DNA from: Escherichia coli
GTDB lineage: Bacteria > Pseudomonadota > Gammaproteobacteria > Enterobacterales > Enterobacteriaceae
Direction: 5' to 3' (one strand)
NCBI RefSeq assembly: GCF_044324875.1
Contig: NZ_CP172185.1
DNA: 64,000 nt
Part shown: positions 1 to 48,506 of the stretch, in pieces
Position numbering within the stretch: position 1 is the stretch's first letter
Layout: each line of letters opens with the position of its first letter
Notes under the pieces: model-generated
The model's input: only the letters and a program-made list of their open reading frames with translations
Databases searched by the model: none
What the model was told of the DNA's origin: nothing
Translations under genes and position numbers: made by a program

Positions 1-1
1 C

Positions 2-541
2 ATTTTCTAAAGGCAAAAAGCCTTTGCGTGGAGAGGCAGATGTCATGGCGTCGCAGTGTTCCAGCACCAGTTTGCACGGCCAGTCCCAACTGGCGATTTC
101 TTTTAACGAGCGGGCAAAAGCATCCGTCGCTTGTATAACATTAGGATTCGTTGCTAACGGTGCAGCCTGGATCTCCAGTGCGAGAACTTTATTGGCCTGC
201 AATGAGTTGATTTTATTTAATAAGTGTCGATAGTACGCCACGCAGGCCTTGCGTTGTTCTTCATCGCTGGAGGCGAGACCAAAGCCGTTGTTTTCGCTGC
301 GGCGACGCATGGTTTCCATCACTGCGGTGACGACAAATTTCCAGCTCTCTGGCGTATGACGGAGTAACCATTGATCGCCAAGAGGGTGGAAATTTTCCAG
401 GCAGGGTTGTTCCAGACCGCGAATATCAGGGGTATCTGATAATTGTCGCCAGAATTCCTTCTCTTCCTCTTCACTTCTTTGATGAAAAGAAGGTGCACAG
501 GGATACGCACCGATAATATAACCGGCATTATTCGCTTTCAT
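2..541 (-). CDS. hypothetical protein, N-terminal 180 codons only (3' end lies beyond window start)
   Basis: Own translation: ATG at 541..539, open to the window edge with no stop; begins [34 protein letters not shown]. Sits 23 bp downstream of yiaL on the same strand. Hydrophilic, so not the TRAP small permease (yiaM) expected here from the K-12 layout. Not in the ORF track because it has no stop. Confidence 0.5.
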
Positions 542-564
542 TTTGTGCTCCAGTAATAACTTTT

Positions 565-1032
<468 letters not shown>

Positions 1033-1040
1033 TTATCTCC

Positions 1041-2039
1041 TTATAACGCCTGGATTTTTGCCCACACGCTGTCATCAACCGTAATGCCGTTACGGCGGTT
1101 TTCGGCCAGCAGGGTAGTAAATTCGTGGCCGGGTAATCGAATGGCCTGATTTTCGTCAGCGCGTTCAGCGGTGGTAACGTAATCCATGATGCGTTGCAGC
1201 TTGGCATCGCGGGTGGCACCGTCGATAAGCTTGTCCACTTCAATGGCAATAAAAATTTGTGAAATGCCGTATTCGTCGCTGTTGTCCTGGGTGACTTCGG
1301 CAACCGATGCGCCGTCAGAAAGGAGAGTGGCGATCATATCCAGCACAATCGACATGCCCGAACCTTTCCAGTAACCCATCGGCAAAATTCGGCGATTTTT
1401 CTCGATAACGCCAGGTTCTTTGGTCAAATTACCCTCATCATCAAAGCCACCATCTACCGGGAGCTGACGACCTGCCAGACGGTTAACTTCTAACATGCCG
1501 TAGGAAAACATCGACATCGACATATCGACAATGGTGATTGGGGTAGAAGGAATGGCGACGATCAGCGGGTTAGTGCCGATGCGACACTCTTTTGCGCCCC
1601 ACGGCGGCATTACGGCAATGGAGTTGGTCCAGCAAATACCAATATAGCCTTTTTCCGCCGCTTGCCAGCCGTAGCTACCACCGCGCATCCAGTGGTTGGC
1701 ATTACGTAGTGCCACCAGACCAATACCGTGATCGGCAGCCAGTTCAATGGCGCGATCCATCATCTTTTTCGCCGTCAGATTGCCGATCGAACGCTGGGCG
1801 TCCCACTGTTCAATTGCGCCAAGGCTGGTTATACGTTTGGGTTGGGCATCAGGAATGATATCGCCGTTTTCCAGCTGTTGAATGAAACGAGGGAAACGAT
1901 TAACGCCGTGAGAATAAACGCCGGATTCGGTGGTGCGGGCGAACATCTCTGCACAGGCGTCAGCCGTTTCACTGTCAACGCCGCGTGAAATTAAGACTCG
2001 ATTAAAGGCTGCTTTTAACTGCTCAAATGTCACTTTCAT
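1041..2039 (-). CDS. yiaK: 2,3-diketo-L-gulonate reductase
   Basis: 332-aa [36 protein letters not shown]..., recognised as YiaK; divergent from yiaJ. Confidence 0.9.
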
Positions 2040-2240
2040 CCCTGGCTTCCTTGTTTTTTTTGATCGCTTTTTTGGCTTAAAATTTCAATATGCGAAATCT
2101 GATTTCAAATATATCGATCGCTTTTTAACAAAGCAATCTGATTGATGAATTTCAAAAAACTTAAAAATCAAGTGGTTATAAATTATCTGTCGAGATCGTG
2201 AACTACGACACACTTTGCGCTACCATCAGGACGCGACAAA

Positions 2241-3089
2241 ATGGGGAAAGAAGTGATGGGAAAAAAAGAGAACGAGATGGCGCAGGCAAAAGAGCGTCCA
2301 GCCGGAAGCCAGAGTCTGTTTCGCGGGTTGATGCTGATTGAGATTTTGAGCAACTATCCAAACGGTTGTCCGTTGGCGCATCTTTCGGAGCTGGCTGGTT
2401 TAAATAAGAGTACCGTCCATCGCTTATTGCAGGGATTACAGTCCTGCGGCTATGTGACCACCGCGCCCGCCGCAGGGAGTTACCGCCTGACTACCAAATT
2501 CATTGCCGTCGGGCAGAAGGCGCTGTCTTCGCTGAATATCATTCATATCGCCGCTCCGCATCTTGAGGCACTGAACATCGCCACTGGTGAAACCATTAAC
2601 TTCTCCAGCCGCGAAGACGATCACGCTATTTTGATTTATAAGCTGGAACCCACAACCGGGATGCTGCGAACTCGTGCCTATATAGGCCAGCATATGCCGC
2701 TCTACTGTTCCGCAATGGGCAAGATCTACATGGCGTTTGGTCACCCGGACTACGTGAAGTCATACTGGGAAAGCCATCAGCAAGAGATCCAGCCGTTAAC
2801 CCGCAATACCATTACCGAGCTGCCTGCGATGTTCGACGAACTGGCGCACATTCGTGAAAGCGGAGCGGCGATGGACAGAGAAGAAAACGAACTCGGCGTC
2901 TCCTGTATTGCTGTTCCGGTGTTTGATATTCATGGGCGGGTGCCGTACGCCGTGTCGATTTCTCTTTCGACATCACGTCTGAAACAGGTGGGGGAGAAAA
3001 ATCTCCTGAAACCACTGCGTGAAACCGCGCAGGCTATTTCTAATGAACTGGGATTTACTGTCAGGGACGACCAGGGCGCGATCACATAA
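2241..3089 (+). CDS. yiaJ: IclR-family transcriptional repressor of the yiaK operon
   Basis: 282-aa ORF with an IclR-type HTH (…LNKSTVHRLLQGL…) and effector domain; divergent from yiaK. Confidence 0.9.
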   Translation: MGKEVMGKKENEMAQAKERPAGSQSLFRGLMLIEILSNYPNGCPLAHLSELAGLNKSTVHRLLQGLQSCGYVTTAPAAGSYRLTTKFIAVGQKALSSLNIIHIAAPHLEALNIATGETINFSSREDDHAILIYKLEPTTGMLRTRAYIGQHMPLYCSAMGKIYMAFGHPDYVKSYWESHQQEIQPLTRNTITELPAMFDELAHIRESGAAMDREENELGVSCIAVPVFDIHGRVPYAVSISLSTSRLKQVGEKNLLKPLRETAQAISNELGFTVRDDQGAIT

Positions 3090-3830: not shown

Positions 3831-5080
3831 TGACTTTCAGCCCAGGCTCTTTCTATCTCTTCTGCCAGAATCTTCACACCCGCCTCAATTTTCTCCGGCT
3901 CCGGCACGTAGTTCATGCGCATACATTGATGTGTATGTGGCCACGGTTTATCCAGCCCTGGGAAGAAGTTGTGCCCCGGCACCATCAGCACGCCCCGTGC
4001 TTTCAGGCGCTGGTAGAGCTGCTCGGTCGTAATTGGCAAATCCTTAAACCATAGCCAGAGGAAAATGGCTCCTTCGGGTTTATGAATCAGGCAGCGATCT
4101 TCCGGTAAATAGCGGCGAATGATAGCGATAGTTTCCTGAACACGCTGGTAGTAAAACGGTTTGATGACTGTTTCAGACAGGCGCAGCAGATCGTTACGCT
4201 TAATCATTTCACACATCATCGCCGGACCAATACCGCCAGGTGCCAGGCTGATAATGCCGTTCATATTGGTGATGGCGGTGATGATTTTTTCATTGGCGAT
4301 GATAATGCCGCAGCGGGAGCCAGGTAGCCCCAGCTTGGAAAGACTCATGCACAGTACGATATTCGGATTCCACAGCGGGCGCGCTTCGCTGAAGATGATA
4401 CCCGGGAACGGGACGCCATAAGCGTTATCAATCACCAGCGGAATGCCGTGTTGATTCGCCAGCGCGTCAAGCTTCAGCAACTCTTCGTCAGTAATCACAT
4501 TGCCTGTTGGATTCGTCGGCCGGGAGACGCAAATCATCCCGGTTTCTTCGCCAATATGCAGATGCTCAAAATCGACGTGGTATTTAAACTGGCCTTCCGG
4601 CAGCAGTTCAATATTCGGACGTGCAGAGACAAACAGATCTTCTTCCAGTCCGGCGTCAGCGTATCCAATGTATTCCGGTGCCAGCGGAAACAGCACTTTT
4701 TTGACCCGACCGTCGGCACGGCGTCCGGCGAACAGATTAAATAAGTAGAAAAACGCGCTCTGGCTGCCGTTTGTTAGTGCAATATTCTGTGGTTCGATAT
4801 CCCAACCCAACTTCTCGCGCAGCATTCCGGCAAGCAGTGTGAGTAGCTCCGTTTTCCCCTGTGGACCGTCGTAATTGCACAGTGCATCAGTCGCTTTGCC
4901 ACTTTCCAGCATGTCGGTCAGTAGCGTCTGGAAGTAGTCCTGCATTTCCGGGATCTGCGCTGGATTACCGCCGCCGAGCATAATCGCGCCAGGCGTGCGT
5001 AAACCGTCGTTCAGATCTTCCATCAGCAGCGTAATGCCGGAGTGGCGGGTAAATTTGTCACCAAAAAGGGAGAATGTCAT
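3827..5080 (-). CDS. avtA: valine-pyruvate aminotransferase
   Basis: ORF 3827..5185; the internal Met at 5080 gives the 417-aa protein MTFSLFGDKFTRHSGITLLMEDLNDGLRTPGAIMLGGGNPAQIP… recognised as AvtA. Confidence 0.9.
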   Translation of the reverse strand: MTFSLFGDKFTRHSGITLLMEDLNDGLRTPGAIMLGGGNPAQIPEMQDYFQTLLTDMLESGKATDALCNYDGPQGKTELLTLLAGMLREKLGWDIEPQNIALTNGSQSAFFYLFNLFAGRRADGRVKKVLFPLAPEYIGYADAGLEEDLFVSARPNIELLPEGQFKYHVDFEHLHIGEETGMICVSRPTNPTGNVITDEELLKLDALANQHGIPLVIDNAYGVPFPGIIFSEARPLWNPNIVLCMSLSKLGLPGSRCGIIIANEKIITAITNMNGIISLAPGGIGPAMMCEMIKRNDLLRLSETVIKPFYYQRVQETIAIIRRYLPEDRCLIHKPEGAIFLWLWFKDLPITTEQLYQRLKARGVLMVPGHNFFPGLDKPWPHTHQCMRMNYVPEPEKIEAGVKILAEEIERAWAESH

Positions 5081-15325: not shown

Positions 15326-16780
15326 ATGTATATCGGGATAGATCTTGGCACCTCGGGCGTAAAAGTTATTTTGCTCAACGAGCAGGGTGAGGTGGTTGCT
15401 TCGCAAACGGAAAAGCTGACCGTTTCGCGCCCGCATCCACTCTGGTCGGAACAAGACCCGGAACAGTGGTGGCAGGCAACTGATCGCGCAATGAAAGCCC
15501 TGGGCGATCAGCATTCTCTGCAGGACGTTAAAGCATTGGGTATTGCCGGCCAGATGCACGGTGCAACCTTACTGGATGCCCAGCAACGGTTATTACGCCC
15601 TGCCATTTTGTGGAACGACGGGCGCTGTGCGCAAGAGTGCGCTTTGCTGGAAGCGCGAGTTCCGCAATCGCGGGTGATTACCGGTAACCTGATGATGCCC
15701 GGATTTACTGCGCCTAAATTGCTATGGGTTCAGCGGCATGAGCCGGAGATATTCCGTCAAATCGACAAAGTATTGTTACCGAAAGATTACTTGCGTCTGC
15801 GTATGACGGGGGAGTTTGCCAGCGATATGTCTGACGCAGCTGGCACCATGTGGCTGGATGTCGCAAAGCGTGACTGGAGTGACGACATGCTGCAGGCTTG
15901 CCACTTATCTCGTGACCAGATGCCCGCATTATACGAAGGCAGCGAAATTACTGGTGCTTTGCTACCTGAAGTTGCGAAAGCGTGGGGTATGGCGGCGGTG
16001 CCAGTTGTCGCAGGCGGTGGTGATAATGCAGCTGGTGCGGTTGGTGTAGGAATGGTTGATGCTAATCAGGCAATGTTATCGCTGGGGACGTCGGGAGTCT
16101 ATTTTGCTGTCAGCGAAGGGTTCTTAAGCAAGCCAGAAAGCGCCGTACACAGCTTTTGCCATGCGCTACCGCAGCGTTGGCATTTAATGTCTGTGATGCT
16201 GAGTGCAGCGTCGTGTCTGGATTGGGCTGCGAAATTAACGGGCCTGAACAATGTCCCAGCTTTAATCGCGGCTGCTCAACAGGCTGATGAAAGTGCCGAT
16301 CCAGTTTGGTTTCTGCCTTATCTTTCCGGCGAGCGTACACCACACAATAATCCCCAGGCGAAGGGGGTTTTCTTTGGTTTGACTCATCAACATGGCCCCA
16401 ATGAACTGGCGCGAGCAGTGCTGGAAGGCGTGGGTTATGCGCTGGCAGATGGCATGGATGTCGTGCATGCCTGCGGCATTAAACCGCAAAGTGTTACGTT
16501 GATTGGTGGCGGGGCGCGTAGTGAGTACTGGCGTCAGATGCTGGCGGATATCAGCGGTCAGCAACTCGATTACCGCACGGGGGGGGATGTGGGGCCAGCA
16601 CTGGGCGCAGCAAGGCTGGCGCAGATTGCGGCGAATCCAGAGAAATCGCTCATTGAGTTGTTGCCACAACTGCCGTTAGAACAGTCGCATTTACCAGATG
16701 CGCAGCGTTATGCCGCTTATCAGCCACGACGTGAAACGTTCCGTCGCCTCTATCAGCAACTTCTGCCATTAATGGCGTAA
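15326..16780 (+). CDS. xylB: xylulokinase
   Basis: 484-aa ORF MYIGIDLGTSGVKVILLNEQGEV… (FGGY sugar kinase N-terminus), 71 bp after xylA. Confidence 0.95.
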   Translation: MYIGIDLGTSGVKVILLNEQGEVVASQTEKLTVSRPHPLWSEQDPEQWWQATDRAMKALGDQHSLQDVKALGIAGQMHGATLLDAQQRLLRPAILWNDGRCAQECALLEARVPQSRVITGNLMMPGFTAPKLLWVQRHEPEIFRQIDKVLLPKDYLRLRMTGEFASDMSDAAGTMWLDVAKRDWSDDMLQACHLSRDQMPALYEGSEITGALLPEVAKAWGMAAVPVVAGGGDNAAGAVGVGMVDANQAMLSLGTSGVYFAVSEGFLSKPESAVHSFCHALPQRWHLMSVMLSAASCLDWAAKLTGLNNVPALIAAAQQADESADPVWFLPYLSGERTPHNNPQAKGVFFGLTHQHGPNELARAVLEGVGYALADGMDVVHACGIKPQSVTLIGGGARSEYWRQMLADISGQQLDYRTGGDVGPALGAARLAQIAANPEKSLIELLPQLPLEQSHLPDAQRYAAYQPRRETFRRLYQQLLPLMA

Positions 16781-16947
16781 ACGTTATCCCCTGCCTGACC
16801 GGGTGGGGATAATTCACATCTATATATCTCAGTAATTAATTAATATTTAGTATGAATTTATTCTGAAAATCATTTGTTAATGGCATTTTTCAGTTTTGTC
16901 TTTCGTTGGTTACTCGTAATGTATCGCTGGTAGATATGGAGATCGTT

Positions 16948-17289
16948 ATGAAAACCTCAAAAACTGTGGCAAAACTATTATTTGTTGTCGGGGCGCTGGT
17001 TTATCTGCTTGGGCTATGGATCTCATGCCCATTGTTAAGTGGAAAAGGCTATTTTCTTGGCGTGTTAATGACAGCAACTTTTGGTAACTATGCATATCTT
17101 CGCGCAGAAAAACTCGGGCAACTGGATAATTTTTTTATCCATATCTGCCAGTTAGTCGCGTTAATCACTATCGGTCTCTTGTTTATCGGTGTTTTAAACG
17201 CACCTATCAATGCTTATGAAATGGTGATCTACCCTATCGCCTTTTTTGTCTGCTTGTTTGGTCAAATGCGTTTGTTTCGCCCGGCATGA
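16948..17289 (+). CDS. yiaB: YiaA/YiaB family inner-membrane protein
   Basis: 113 aa from MKTSKTVAKLLFVVGALVYLLGLW…; hydrophobic. Confidence 0.8.
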   Translation: MKTSKTVAKLLFVVGALVYLLGLWISCPLLSGKGYFLGVLMTATFGNYAYLRAEKLGQLDNFFIHICQLVALITIGLLFIGVLNAPINAYEMVIYPIAFFVCLFGQMRLFRPA

Positions 17290-17334
17290 GCAACATAAAG
17301 CTCTTACACATTCAGGAATGAAAGGAATGCTGTG

Positions 17335-17772
17335 ATGGACAACAAAATATCAACCTATTCTCCGGCATTCAGTATTGTGTCATGGATAGCTCTCGTTGGT
17401 GGTATCGTTACCTATCTGTTAGGGCTATGGAATGCAGAGATGCAGTTAAATGAAAAAGGATATTATTTTGCTGTACTGGTATTAGGACTGTTTTCTGCGG
17501 CGTCTTATCAAAAGACCGTTCGGGACAAGTATGAAGGCATACCGACCACCTCCATTTATTATATGACCTGCCTGACTGTCTTTATTATCTCTGTTGCGTT
17601 ACTGATGGTAGGTCTGTGGAATGCGACGTTATTACTCAGCGAGAAAGGTTTTTATGGACTGGCTTTCTTCTTAAGCTTGTTTGGTGCAGTAGCGGTGCAG
17701 AAGAATATTCGTGATGCCGGAATAAACCCACCAAAAGAAACACAGGTTACCCAGGAAGAATACAGCGAATAA
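17335..17772 (+). CDS. yiaA: YiaA/YiaB family inner-membrane protein
   Basis: 145 aa from [32 protein letters not shown]…; two repeats of the YiaAB motif. Confidence 0.8.
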
Positions 17773-22420: not shown

Positions 22421-22673
22421 TCGCTAAATAATAGAGCAACCTTTAATAATCTTCTGCTGAATAAAGATTGTCTCATATATTAATTTTATGAGATTTTTTT
22501 AGGATTATATCAAGGAGAAGAAACGAACTTATTAAGCTAGAATAGCCACGGGTGCTTGAGACTGTTTGTCTCAGGTATTCACCGAAAGGCAGACAGAGAA
22601 AAGCCCCACCTGACTATAAATCAAAGTGTACTGCACCCATTTTGTTGGACGATGAAATGGAATAGCCCCTGAT

Positions 22674-23195
22674 ATGTCAAAGCCAAAATACCCTTTTGAA
22701 AAGCGCCTTGAAGTCGTGAATCACTACTTCACTACTGATGATGGTTACAGGATCATCTCGGCACGTTTTGGTGTCCCCCGAACCCAGGTCAGGACATGGG
22801 TTGCCCTCTATGAAAAACATGGAGAAAAAGGTTTAATTCCCAAACCTAAAGGTGTTAGTGCTGATCCTGAGTTGCGTATTAAGGTCGTGAAAGCTGTGAT
22901 CGAGCAGCACATGTCCCTTAATCAGGCTGCTGCTCACTTTATGCTTGCTGGTAGTGGTTCTGTAGCCAGGTGGCTGAAGGTTTATGAAGAGCGCGGAGAA
23001 GCTGGTTTACGCGCGCTCAAGATTGGCACCAAAAGAAACATTGCAATATCAGTTGATCCAGAAAAAGCGGCATCAGCATTGGAGCTGTCAAAAGACCGAC
23101 GCATTGAGGATCTTGAAAGGCAAGTTCGATTTCTTGAAACGCGGCTTGTGTATCTAAAAAAGCTGAAAGCCTTAGCTCATCCCACGAAAAAGTGA
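22674..23195 (+). CDS. insJ: IS150 transposase OrfA
   Basis: 173-aa ORF MSKPKYPFEKRLEVVNHYFTTDDGYRIISARFGVPRTQVRTW…, recognised as IS150 InsJ. Confidence 0.92.
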   Translation: MSKPKYPFEKRLEVVNHYFTTDDGYRIISARFGVPRTQVRTWVALYEKHGEKGLIPKPKGVSADPELRIKVVKAVIEQHMSLNQAAAHFMLAGSGSVARWLKVYEERGEAGLRALKIGTKRNIAISVDPEKAASALELSKDRRIEDLERQVRFLETRLVYLKKLKALAHPTKK

Positions 23196-24043
23196 AAGTA
23201 CTCAACGAGCTAAGGCAGTTTTATCCTCTTGATGAGCTTCTCAGGGCTGCGGAGATACCGCGCAGTACGTTTTATTACCATCTAAAGGCTCTCAGCAAGC
23301 CTGACAAGTATGCGGACGTTAAAAAGCGTATTGGTGAGATTTATCATGAGAATAGAGGCCGATACGGATACCGTAGGGTAACGCTGTCTCTTCATCGAGA
23401 AGGGAAACAGATTAACCATAAAGCTGTTCAGCGCCTGATGGGAACCCTCTCACTTAAGGCAGCGATTAAGGTCAAGCGATACCGCTCTTACAGAGGAGAG
23501 GTAGGGCAAACCGCCCCCAATGTTCTCCAAAGAGATTTCAAGGCTACGCGGCCAAACGAGAAGTGGGTTACCGATGTTACTGAATTTGCAGTCAATGGGC
23601 GCAAGCTGTATTTGTCTCCAGTAATAGATCTCTTCAACAACGAAGTTATTTCTTACAGCCTTTCGGAAAGACCAGTGATGAACATGGTCGAGAATATGCT
23701 CGATCAGGCATTCAAAAAGCTTAATCCTCACGAGCATCCTGTTCTGCACTCTGACCAGGGATGGCAGTATCGTATGAGAAGATATCAAAATATCCTTAAA
23801 GAATATGGTATTAAACAAAGCATGTCCAGAAAAGGCAATTGTCTGGATAATGCTGTGGTGGAGTGTTTCTTTGGAACCTTAAAATCGGAGTGTTTTTATC
23901 TTGATGAGTTCAGTAATATAAGCGAACTGAAGGATGCTGTTACGGAATATATTGAATACTACAACAGCAGAAGAATTAGCCTGAAATTAAAAGGTCTGAC
24001 TCCAATTGAATATCGGAATCAGACCTATATGCCTCGTGTTTAA
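23192..24043 (+). CDS. insK: IS150 transposase OrfB (DDE domain; joined to OrfA by -1 frameshift)
   Basis: 283-aa ORF overlapping insJ by 4 bp; …[10 protein letters not shown]…[20 protein letters not shown]… integrase core. Confidence 0.92.
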
Positions 24044-24144
24044 CTGTCCAACTTTTTGGGGTCAGTACAAAGTGAGGCCCCTCTATGCATAGACACCATA
24101 AGGTTAGCCTCTTACTCGTTGGAAATCAACACAGGAGGCTGGGA

Positions 24145-32050: not shown

Positions 32051-33287
32051 ACTTTCCCTCGCTATGTACCCGATCGTAAAAATTTCAGCAGCTTTTCTTG
32101 ACGCATCGGTGAAAAAGTCAATATTTAATACAGGGCTACTATGCCCGATATCCTTCATACAATGACAATAATATTGCCGAATTCGGCTCTTCCCTGGAGT
32201 CGTGTTAATGATCATAAAAAAAAGCGGTGGTCGCTGGCAGCTAAGCCTGCTGGTGAGCGTGGTAATCAGTGCCTTTTTTCTCAACACAGCTTACGCCTGG
32301 CAACAAGAATATATCGTTGATACGCAACCCGGACATTCCACAGAGCGTTACACCTGGGATAGCGATCATCAACCTGATTACAACGATATTTTGTCGCAAC
32401 GTATTCAAAGTAGCCAAAGGGCGCTGGGACTGGAAGTCAATCTGGCGGAAGAAACCCCTGTGGATGTGACCAGCAGTATGAGTATGGGCTGGAATTTTCC
32501 TTTATATGAACAGGTTACAACCGGCCCGGTCGCGGCATTACATTACGATGGCACAACCACCTCGATGTATAACGAGTTTGGCGACAGTACTACCACGCTA
32601 GCCGATCCGTTATGGCATGCCAGCGTGAGTACCTTAGGCTGGCGTGTTGACTCCCGGCTTGGCGATCTCCGACCCTGGGCGCAAATCAGCTATAACCAGC
32701 AATTTGGCGAGAATATCTGGAAGGCGCAATCAGGCCTGAGCCGGATGACGGCGACAATGAACTGCACCCCAAATGTTGGACATAATCTGACATCTGAAGG
32801 TGCAGTTTATGAAACATTCATTTGAAGTAAAACTTGCCGCTGTAAATCACTACCTGGCTGGTCATGCAGGCATCATTTCTACGGCAAAACTCTTTCAACT
32901 TTCTCACACCAGCCTCTCACACTGGATTAATCTTTTTCTTCTTCACGGTCCTCGGGCACTGGATTGCAGACACAAGCGTAGCTATTCTCCTGAAGATAAA
33001 CTTTGCGTGGTTCTTTATGCTCTCGGGCATTCTGAGTCTCTACCCCGGGTAGCTGCCCGGTTTAACATTCCCAGCCACAACACGGTTAAAAACTGGATAA
33101 AAGGCTACCGCAAATCTGGTAATGAGGCCTTTATCAGGCGCTGGAAGGAGAAAAGCATGACCCGTTCTGATGATACCCATGAAAACGAGGCAAACATGAC
33201 GCCGGAAGAGATGAAGAATGAGCTGCGTTATCTTCGCGCAGAAAATGCATATCTGAAAGCCATGCAGGAGCATCTCCTGGAAAAAAA

Positions 33288-34189
<902 letters not shown>

Positions 34190-38051: not shown

Positions 38052-39400
<1,349 letters not shown>

Positions 39401-46957: not shown

Positions 46958-47432
46958 AAAGTCCTGTCCAGAAAGAAGTCGGCCTCGCAAAAATGAATAA
47001 ACCCAGTTTCTCTTGCGCAACAGGTGGAGAAGTCGAATACGCAGTATGTAAAAAATGAGGCAACAGATTCACTGGGGAGGTCGCGAGGAGGCGCAATTCT
47101 ACAAAATTGCGCATTTCACTACCAGTCTGGAGTCAGCTCGGATATGAACTGCAACTATTGCAAATAAAGAAATTAAGCTGGAAGGCATCGCGCAATGAGG
47201 AAGATTGCCGGGTGCTGACGGTAAAAAGCAATCGTAAAATCAGCGGCAAGCCGGAAAGGTTCCGGTGAGGCGCAATGTTGCGGGGGCTTAATCCCTGGTG
47301 GCATTGGTTGCTGGAGAGAGAAAACCCCCGCACGTTGCAGGTATGCACCTGACAACACCACGGGGGCCATTCTTGCATCCAAACAATACAAGAATAGCCG
47401 CGAAACGTTGTCATTACAACTCAGGCGGCTAT

Positions 47433-47540
47433 ATGACGCTCGCAGAGCTGGGCATGGCCTTCTGGCATGATTTAGCGGCTCCGGTCATTGCTGGCATTCT
47501 TGCCAGCATGATCGTGAACTGGCTGAATAAGCGGAAGTAA
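47433..47540 (+). CDS. ldrD: Ldr type I toxin peptide (35 aa), copy 1
   Basis: MTLAELGMAFWHDLAAPVIAGILASMIVNWLNKRK; LdrD-type sequence. Confidence 0.8.
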   Translation: MTLAELGMAFWHDLAAPVIAGILASMIVNWLNKRK

Positions 47541-47915
47541 CGTGTCAGACGGGCGTCAGGCTGCCGTAATGGCAATTTGCGCCCGGACCAGGCCGCAGGG
47601 ATAAAACTCTGCGGCCTTTTTCGTAAGAAAAATGCAACGGTTGCAAGCGGATAATATTCTGCTGAATGCACAGCACAGAGTGAAGAAGTGATGGATTTCG
47701 ACGAACAAAAATGGCCGTAGAATCAGCGGCAAGCCGGAAGGGTTCCGGTGAGGCGCAATGTTGCGGGGGCTTAATCCCTGGTGGCATTGGTTGCTGGAGA
47801 GAGAAAACCCCCGCACGTTGCAGGTATGCACCTGACAACACCACGGGGGCCATTCTTGCATCTAGACCATTCAAGAATAGCCGCGAAACGTTGTCATTAC
47901 AACTCAGGCGGCTAT

Positions 47916-48023
47916 ATGACGCTCGCAGAACTGGGCATGGCCTTCTGGCATGATTTAGCGGCTCCGGTCATTGCTGGCATTCTTGCCAGCATGATCGTGA
48001 ACTGGCTGAACAAGCGGAAGTAA
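47916..48023 (+). CDS. Ldr type I toxin peptide (35 aa), copy 2
   Basis: Peptide identical to copy 1, 483 bp downstream. Confidence 0.8.
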   Translation: MTLAELGMAFWHDLAAPVIAGILASMIVNWLNKRK

Positions 48024-48398
48024 CGTGTCAGACGGGCGTCAGGCTGCCGTAATGGCAATTTGCGCCCGGACCAGGCCGCAGAGGTGAAACTCTGCGGCCT
48101 TTTTCGTAAGAAAAATGCAACGGCTGCAAGCGGATAATATTCTGCGGAATGCGCAGCACAGAGTGAAGAAGTGATGGATTTCGGAACAGAAAAACAGTCG
48201 TAGAATCAGCGGCAAGCCGGAAGGGTTCCGGTGAGGCGCAATGTTGCGGGGGCTTAATCCCTGGTGGCATTGGTTGCTGGAGAGAGAAAACCCCCGCACG
48301 TTGCAGGTATTCACCTGACAATATGACGGGGGCCATTCTTGAACCTACACAACTCAAGAATAGCCGCGAAACGTTGTCATTACAACACTGGCGGCTAT

Positions 48399-48506
48399 AT
48401 GACGCTCGCAGAGCTGGGCATGGCCTTCTGGCATGATTTAGCGGCTCCGGTCATTGCTGGCATTCTTGCCAGCATGATCGTGAACTGGCTGAATAAGCGG
48501 AAGTAA
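48399..48506 (+). CDS. Ldr type I toxin peptide (35 aa), copy 3
   Basis: Peptide identical to copy 1 (own translation; not listed in the ORF track because the upstream frame is short). Confidence 0.78.
   Translation: MTLAELGMAFWHDLAAPVIAGILASMIVNWLNKRK

Follow-up and report, generated by a model that had tools for sequence, protein, structure and literature searches.

The closest described counterparts of the locus analysed here are the yia operons of Klebsiella pneumoniae and Escherichia coli K-12. The former reportedly goes back to Campos et al. (2008, J Bacteriol 190:6615), who are said to have described the K. pneumoniae operon yiaKLX1X2PQRS and named the gene yiaX1. The route from 2,3-diketo-L-gulonate to D-xylulose-5-phosphate comprises five steps, those of YiaK, LyxK, SgbH, SgbU and SgbE, with no part for YiaX1. 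In K-12 (yiaKLMNOPQRS), yiaL is followed by yiaM of the TRAP transporter, as the preliminary description of our sequence had stated, the two genes lying 117 bp apart; PlaR binds the plaR-yiaK spacer (PMC6958661), and the substrates proposed so far are rare or uncertain (L-lyxose, L-xylulose, ascorbate). For K. pneumoniae, PMC4324149 presents yiaKLX1X2PQRS as an eight-gene operon in which yiaX2 is a secondary transporter, and PMC6958661 likewise cites this operon.

The locus described here combines features of both. With K-12 it shares the regulator, yiaK and yiaL and, in the relatives of our sequence, also the distal genes, although the K-12 operon lacks yiaX1 and has another yiaL 3' end, a 117-bp spacer unrelated in sequence, and yiaM and yiaN genes that are only 72–78% identical to those of DUF4862-bearing Escherichia. 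With Klebsiella (yiaK-yiaL-DUF4862-MFS-lyxK-sgbH-sgbU-sgbE) it shares the gene placed after yiaL and the flanking yiaJ, yiaK, lyxK and sgbHUE, whereas the transporter after yiaX1 is the MFS protein YiaX2 in Klebsiella and the TRAP system YiaMNO in Escherichia. At the protein level, K. pneumoniae yiaX1 is 74–75% identical over the full length and 78–79% identical across the 180 residues encoded in our sequence.

The window, i.e., the whole stretch of 64,000 nucleotides analysed in this work, starts inside this operon and is 98.4% identical to E. coli GF43 across 17.2 kb. Reading from the regulator, yiaJ (plaR), the IclR-family repressor of the operon, lies on the plus strand at 2241–3089 (IclR-family matches, yiaJ in the relatives; 98.5–99.3% nucleotide identity to K-12 and GF43). 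It is separated from the divergent operon by the yiaJ/yiaK control region (2040–2240), whose position between the two genes makes it the presumed site of the promoter and the PlaR/YiaJ operator. The first operon gene, yiaK (minus strand, 1041–2039), encodes a 3-dehydro-L-gulonate 2-dehydrogenase/2,3-diketo-L-gulonate reductase, as annotated in its RefSeq relatives and as indicated by the equivalog model NF009750 (669.7 bits, cutoff 316 bits). It is followed by yiaL (minus strand, 565–1029), of the YhcH/YjgK/YiaL family (DUF386), with 154 aa, a TIGR00022 match of 206 bits and the same annotation in RefSeq relatives. The yiaL stop codon is at 567–565, and therefore a spacer of 23 nt (minus strand, 542–564, read directly from the sequence) separates it from the next ATG (541–539), with a Shine-Dalgarno motif GGAG (551–548) 6 nt ahead of the start. 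From this ATG the minus-strand frame runs for 180 codons without a stop to base 2, where it is cut by the window edge, and our translation is identical to the one made by hand in the preliminary description. No terminator-like site was found in the 23-nt spacer, and in window positions 1–2400 consensus promoter-like and terminator-like sites occur only at chance level.

The fragment (2–541, minus strand; codons 1–180 of an expected ~306) matches Pfam DUF4862 (PF16154) with an E-value of 1e-54 and 186 bits, residues 9–180 aligning to positions 1–169 of the 291 in the model and the alignment ending at the window edge. The scan against NCBIfam models, for its part, matched no family. The protein, whose family had not been recognised from the sequence by eye, can thus be assigned by the HMM search that had been proposed for it, and it corresponds to yiaX1 of K. 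pneumoniae. This name follows from position in the yiaKLX1X2PQRS gene order. The full-length ortholog in E. coli GF43 has 306 aa, so that the window carries the 5' portion of a DUF4862 gene of ~306 codons, encoding the N-terminal 59% of YiaX1. The short spacer with its GGAG motif, the lack of a terminator and the conserved placement among yia genes make yiaX1, which lies downstream of the yiaJ/yiaK control region, the third member of an operon that reads yiaK-yiaL-yiaX1-(transporter)-lyxK-sgbH-sgbU-sgbE; its earlier reading as operonic was correct.

The product is hydrophilic and mildly acidic, as had been noticed (GRAVY −0.49, pI 5.97), with a maximum 19-residue Kyte-Doolittle mean of 0.77; the corresponding values for K-12 YiaM are a GRAVY of +0.82 and a maximum hydropathy of 2.72. 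An identification of the fragment as the small TRAP permease YiaM was rejected on this hydrophilicity and on the lack of a DctQ match. No other gene of the K-12 yiaK-sgbE operon matched it either, and the 14-kb K-12 region contains no counterpart.

The gene appears to be under purifying constraint. Its Pfam match, its gap-free identity to orthologs and its dN/dS place the open frame far outside what chance would yield. Across the 180 residues it is 94–96% identical to its Escherichia orthologs without a gap (93.9% in the case of GF43), the dN/dS of the fragment against the E. coli, E. marmotae and E. whittamii orthologs is 0.05–0.13, and full-length comparisons between relatives give 0.07–0.11. 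E. albertii was left out (naive value 0.42) because its match is 6 nt longer, which throws an ungapped comparison over 540 nt out of register. All the family-invariant residues that fall within the fragment (E44, G88, E161, H162, D164, K173) are kept, the other six (N195 to K278) being encoded beyond the window. As far as these sequence comparisons go, yiaX1 is a functional gene. One could also see in the open frame a decaying remnant cut short just past the window edge, given that its last 126 codons lie outside the window and that IS1 has disrupted or deleted parts of the operon in some strains. One is JMF1 (L092 10609–13113), carrier of the closest DUF4862 allele, which follows the GF43 order until two IS1 copies interrupt yiaN, the distal part of the operon being deleted. 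Another is EC19 (L101 6045–7078), where an IS1 sits directly after yiaL and the remaining operon is gone in an IS1-associated deletion. However, the 180 open gap-free codons, the intact invariant residues and the low dN/dS all speak against a remnant, relatives show no sign of decay, and every one of the 1055 E. coli matches described below covers at least 80% of the full gene. We regard a pseudogene as extremely unlikely.

Searching with the first 545 bases of the window (megablast), we found the DUF4862 gene in 1055 of 5426 complete E. coli genomes (19%), always as one chromosomal copy, and a sensitive blastn search with the full-length ortholog returned the same 1055 genomes, each with at least 80% of the gene covered. 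RefSeq labels the gene 'DUF4862 family protein' in all of them, Nissle 1917 and ATCC 25922 included. The gene is thus already known and annotated, both as DUF4862 and as yiaX1, and so is the difference between strains; compared with what Pfam and RefSeq group under this name, and with relatives at 93–96% nucleotide identity, our sequence shows nothing different in kind. The allele in the window is a rarer variant, as judged from its 96% nucleotide identity to that of JMF1 and ~93% to the common Nissle 1917/ATCC 25922 allele. As a separate observation, identity between the window and GF43 is ~99% across most of 17 kb and, within positions 1–2000, declines to ~96% in yiaK and yiaL and to 93% in the DUF4862 part, and from this pattern the yia operon of the window looks like a recombination mosaic.

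Gene order in the carriers is very consistent. In GF43 it is yiaJ/yiaK-yiaL-DUF4862-yiaM-yiaN-yiaO-lyxK-sgbH(ulaD)-sgbU-sgbE(araD), and the same order was found in E. marmotae, E. whittamii and E. albertii. In the E. coli carriers yiaM starts ~114 bp after the DUF4862 gene, and a 521-bp probe across the DUF4862-yiaM junction detected it in 1054 of the 1055. The K-12-type junction of yiaL with yiaM is present in 3858–3877 complete E. coli genomes, and ~490 have neither of the two, EC19 with its deletion being an example.

We also looked at the distribution of the gene beyond Escherichia, using a 133-sequence alignment as query against one genome per species, retaining the best 80 of 409 relatives and annotating their neighbour genes by tblastn with Yia proteins. 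Among these best 80 of 409, the DUF4862 gene is inside a yia operon in 75 loci, and these are exactly the loci with at least 46% identity. They come from Escherichia, Citrobacter, Klebsiella, Enterobacter, Kosakonia, Hafnia, Rahnella, Budvicia, Serratia and Gilliamella, and also from Succinivibrio, Tolumonas and Silvimonas. Of these 75 loci, 72 have yiaL as the immediate upstream gene in the same orientation (median gap between the tblastn matches, 36 nt). Across all 75, the gene that follows DUF4862 encodes the MFS transporter YiaX2 in 65 and belongs to the TRAP system YiaMNO in six. YiaX2 follows in Klebsiella, Citrobacter, Enterobacter and other genera, not in Escherichia.

These data bear on the earlier suggestion that the strain has a different gene at this position and possibly a different transport or catabolic module. 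The first half stands: yiaL has a neighbour other than yiaM, and this neighbour has a match in only 1055 of the 5426 E. coli genomes. A replacement of yiaMNO, for example by an MFS YiaX2 of the Klebsiella type, might be thought of because the window stops inside yiaX1, so that the next gene lies beyond it, and MFS is what most yia-context loci of the best 80 relatives have there. Nevertheless, yiaM comes next in every Escherichia locus examined, the junction is nearly universal among the E. coli carriers, and the window is almost identical to GF43 over the 17.2 kb compared, so that we judge a replaced module very unlikely. From the order in GF43 and JMF1 and the junction in the 1054 genomes, we conclude that the TRAP transporter still follows DUF4862 in E. 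coli; yiaX1 is present in the operon along with the transporter and does not take its place.

Two of the loci outside Escherichia deserve a comment. The yia operon of a MAG labelled 'Citrobacter sp.' (L012, DXKH01000018.1) has 95–100% protein identity to GF43, and the contig probably comes from E. coli, its assignment to Citrobacter being an error of binning or labelling. In Citrobacter koseri NCTC10786 (L015, 10001 to ~13000) we detected neither an MFS nor a TRAP gene in the interval from DUF4862 to lyxK, and SgbU matches at only 67%; this operon may be a transporter-less or decaying variant.

The comparison shows, on sequence grounds, that the layout with yiaX1 is the common one and the ancestral one in Escherichia and across Enterobacterales, and K-12 appears to be derived. 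Specifically, yiaJ and yiaK of K-12 are 96.7–98.5% identical to those of GF43 and the stretch from yiaO through sgbE 92–97%, whereas yiaM (72.5%) and yiaN (78%) are far more divergent, and equally so when compared to E. marmotae, E. whittamii and E. albertii. The GF43 yiaM and yiaN genes, in contrast, are 85–95% identical to those of the same three species, an ordinary species-level divergence. The left edge of the divergent block is at about window 640, within the last ~25 codons of yiaL (window ~565–640): identity between window and K-12 goes from 94–100% to 60–66% below ~650, and the BLAST alignment ends at 635. In K-12 the block spans L002 4132–6082 (yiaL 3' end, spacer, yiaM and yiaN). 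Both the placement of the gene inside the yia operon in 75 of the best 80 loci and the divergence of yiaM and yiaN against flanks of 92–98% lead us to consider the K-12 arrangement as derived. The simplest reading of these alignments is that in the K-12-type haplotype a foreign yiaM-yiaN segment replaced the yiaL 3' end, yiaX1, yiaM and yiaN, and that yiaX1 was lost in this way. We also considered a remnant of yiaX1 in the yiaL-yiaM spacer of K-12 and rejected it, GF43 16560–17684 giving no alignment with K-12. Next to the operon, the GF43 genes that come after sgbE code for an AraC regulator, an MFS transporter and a GH127 glycoside hydrolase (L001 24174–28596), whereas K-12 has only the pseudogene stubs ysaC/ysaD (L002 10814–11110); this stretch is a second K-12 loss, adjoining the yia operon.

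What YiaX1 does has to be approached through its predicted structure. The GF43 ortholog was modelled with AlphaFold2 from the 133-sequence alignment, giving a very confident structure (pLDDT 96.7, pTM 0.93) with alternating strands and helices. Foldseek matches this model best to xylose isomerases and to the P. stutzeri L-rhamnose isomerase, an enzyme of broad specificity, and its AFDB neighbours are all DUF4862 proteins. YiaX1 is accordingly predicted to be soluble and to fold as a (beta/alpha)8 barrel that resembles members of the xylose-isomerase-like superfamily. Sequence searches returned little: AP_endonuc_2 (PF01261), a profile of that superfamily, had no Pfam match in the fragment; hhalign against SgbU, with a single sequence or with a 66-sequence alignment, stayed below 3% probability; and a PDB search with the full-length ortholog and the 133-sequence profile gave nothing meaningful (bacterioferritin at E 0.17). 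Since there is no sequence-level similarity to AP_endonuc_2 enzymes, it is the predicted fold that places YiaX1 in the superfamily. Identity to XylA, L-rhamnose isomerase, the D-tagatose/psicose 3-epimerases, UlaE/SgbU, IolI and YgbM/OtnI is only 6–17%.

Legacy database names would make of it a CheA-like chemotaxis protein: some members are called 'chemotaxis protein' or 'Chemotaxis protein, resembles CheA', and yiaX1 is labelled 'chemotaxis-like protein' in PMC4324149. The fragment has no Pfam domain of CheA or histidine-kinase type, the model folds as a xylose-isomerase-type TIM barrel and the context is a catabolic operon, so we give this reading practically no credence.

Twelve columns are invariant among the 133 sequences, which share ~30% identity: E44, G88, E161, H162, D164, K173, N195, W196, R198, D241, H243 and K278. 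Active sites of TIM barrels sit at the C-terminal ends of the strands, and most of these residues are at, or just past, the C-terminal ends of the predicted strands. From their conservation, E161, H162, D164, D241 and H243 could form a divalent-metal site, while the three invariant basic residues (K173, R198 and K278) suggest an anionic substrate. Judged by strand position, the canonical metal-ligand set of xylose-isomerase-like enzymes is seemingly substituted in part, N195, S228 and K278 appearing to occupy several of the ligand positions.

The neighbourhoods of distant homologs (30–40% identity) provide a second line of evidence. Two are acid-sugar clusters in which DUF4862 comes directly after a pair of KDPG-aldolase and PfkB-kinase genes: L094 (5342–8044), with an MR/MLE dehydratase, a DHDPS-like aldolase, an IclR regulator and a sugar ABC transporter, and L100 (5315–7957), with an MR/MLE gene, an MFS transporter and a Mannitol_dh-type dehydrogenase, from the Pfam family to which the mannonate oxidoreductase UxuB belongs. 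Related gene sets are found in L095 (MR/MLE, DHDPS, PfkB, SDR and two IclR regulators), L096 (a BNR sialidase-like protein, MR/MLE and a 2-hydroxyacid dehydrogenase) and L099 (TctABC, RraA-like, DHDPS and FAA hydrolase). In L089 (7406–12597) it is part of a sialic-acid catabolic cluster with a sialate-lyase-like gene, NagA and a NanM-like mutarotase, and L010 (422–9023) holds a NeuB nonulosonate biosynthesis cluster. L091 has a split transketolase and a PfkB hexose kinase, and in L008, L097 and L098 the neighbours were uninformative. The theme common to these contexts is 2-keto (deoxy) sugar acids. In L100 no uronate isomerase was present in the 14 kb seen, and in some other bacteria DUF4862 may take the place of a missing isomerase of hexuronate or 2-keto-3-deoxy-acid pathways.

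Putting fold and context together, we propose that YiaX1 would be a cytoplasmic enzyme that isomerises or epimerises one of the keto sugar acids on the route of oxidised ascorbate. Candidate substrates are 2,3-diketo-L-gulonate, 3-keto-L-gulonate and close relatives, for example 2-keto-L-gulonate; the product would be the form used by YiaK or LyxK. We favour this because the 2-keto acid theme fits the intermediates of the yia operon (2,3-diketo-L-gulonate and 3-keto-L-gulonate, according to the annotated gene products), and because of the pairing with YiaL, whose family includes an N-acetylneuraminate anomerase. OtnI, of the YgbM family, isomerises 2-oxo- to 3-oxo-tetronate, and by analogy one might speculate that YiaX1 interconverts 2-keto- and 3-keto-L-gulonate. 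Several points weigh against an enzymatic role of this kind, namely that YiaK, LyxK, SgbH, SgbU and SgbE cover the five steps to D-xylulose-5-phosphate without YiaX1, that K-12-type strains manage without yiaX1, that some distant homologs have uninformative neighbours, and that its likeness to characterised isomerases and epimerases is at the level of the fold only.

The main rival is an aldose-ketose isomerase of neutral rare sugars that makes L-xylulose (e.g., from L-lyxose or L-xylose), feeds LyxK and completes an L-pentose pathway. It fits the Foldseek matches to L-rhamnose and xylose isomerases, the annotation of LyxK as L-xylulokinase, the long-standing association of the operon with L-lyxose and L-xylulose (PMC6958661) and the transketolase and hexose kinase that adjoin the homolog in L091. 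On the other hand, the invariant K173, R198 and K278 suit an anionic substrate, most of the informative distant contexts are acid-sugar clusters, and yiaX1 is tightly paired with yiaL and yiaK, whose products work on keto acids; a neutral-sugar isomerase is therefore improbable in our opinion. Returning to the keto-sugar-acid enzyme, we consider the account as a whole (identity of yiaX1 and its layout, the loss in K-12, the barrel fold and the type of enzyme) quite probable. That DUF4862 moreover represents a new family of enzymes isomerising or epimerising keto sugar acids, and that the YiaX1 step determines which natural substrate the yia operon has, is a tentative and rather doubtful extension.

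In a full-text literature search we found no mention of DUF4862 and no experiment on any DUF4862 protein, only passing mentions of yiaX1/yiaX2, and nothing on yiaX1 in the literature on yiaL/yiaK, diketogulonate or dehydroascorbate. As a feature of the genome yiaX1 is ordinary, over 1000 complete genomes of E. coli having it annotated already. Its presence indicates, however, that the yia operon of K-12 does not represent the reference state: most enterobacteria carry one more enzyme-like gene, and in the conserved operon this uncharacterised gene is paired with the likewise uncharacterised yiaL. The confident model, the 12 invariant residues and the consistent sugar-acid contexts make DUF4862 a tractable case for assigning a function, which could settle the true substrate of the operon in gut and extraintestinal E. 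coli (such as Nissle 1917 and ATCC 25922) and in Klebsiella. If YiaX1 were indeed the substrate-defining step, its loss through the foreign yiaM-yiaN segment would help to explain why the K-12 operon has looked 'cryptic'.

Elsewhere in the window several mobile elements were observed. An IS150 (IS3 family, orfA/orfB; 22628–24068) lies next to hokA; it is absent from GF43 and common to ~1200 complete E. coli genomes, IAI39 and CE10 among them. An IS1397, also of the IS3 family (32757–34189), is inserted between the tag/yiaC side and yhjY; none of the 5426 complete E. coli genomes carries the element there, no record reaching 80% coverage of the probe for this junction. An IS621 of ~1.28 kb (IS110 family, transposase of 326 aa; 38055–39334) adjoins tRNA-Pro and the RtT region, an insertion common to ~1620 genomes. 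Finally, at ~47200–49100 the window has more Ldr type I toxin repeat units than GF43, as seen in overlapping BLAST segments of 95–97% identity.
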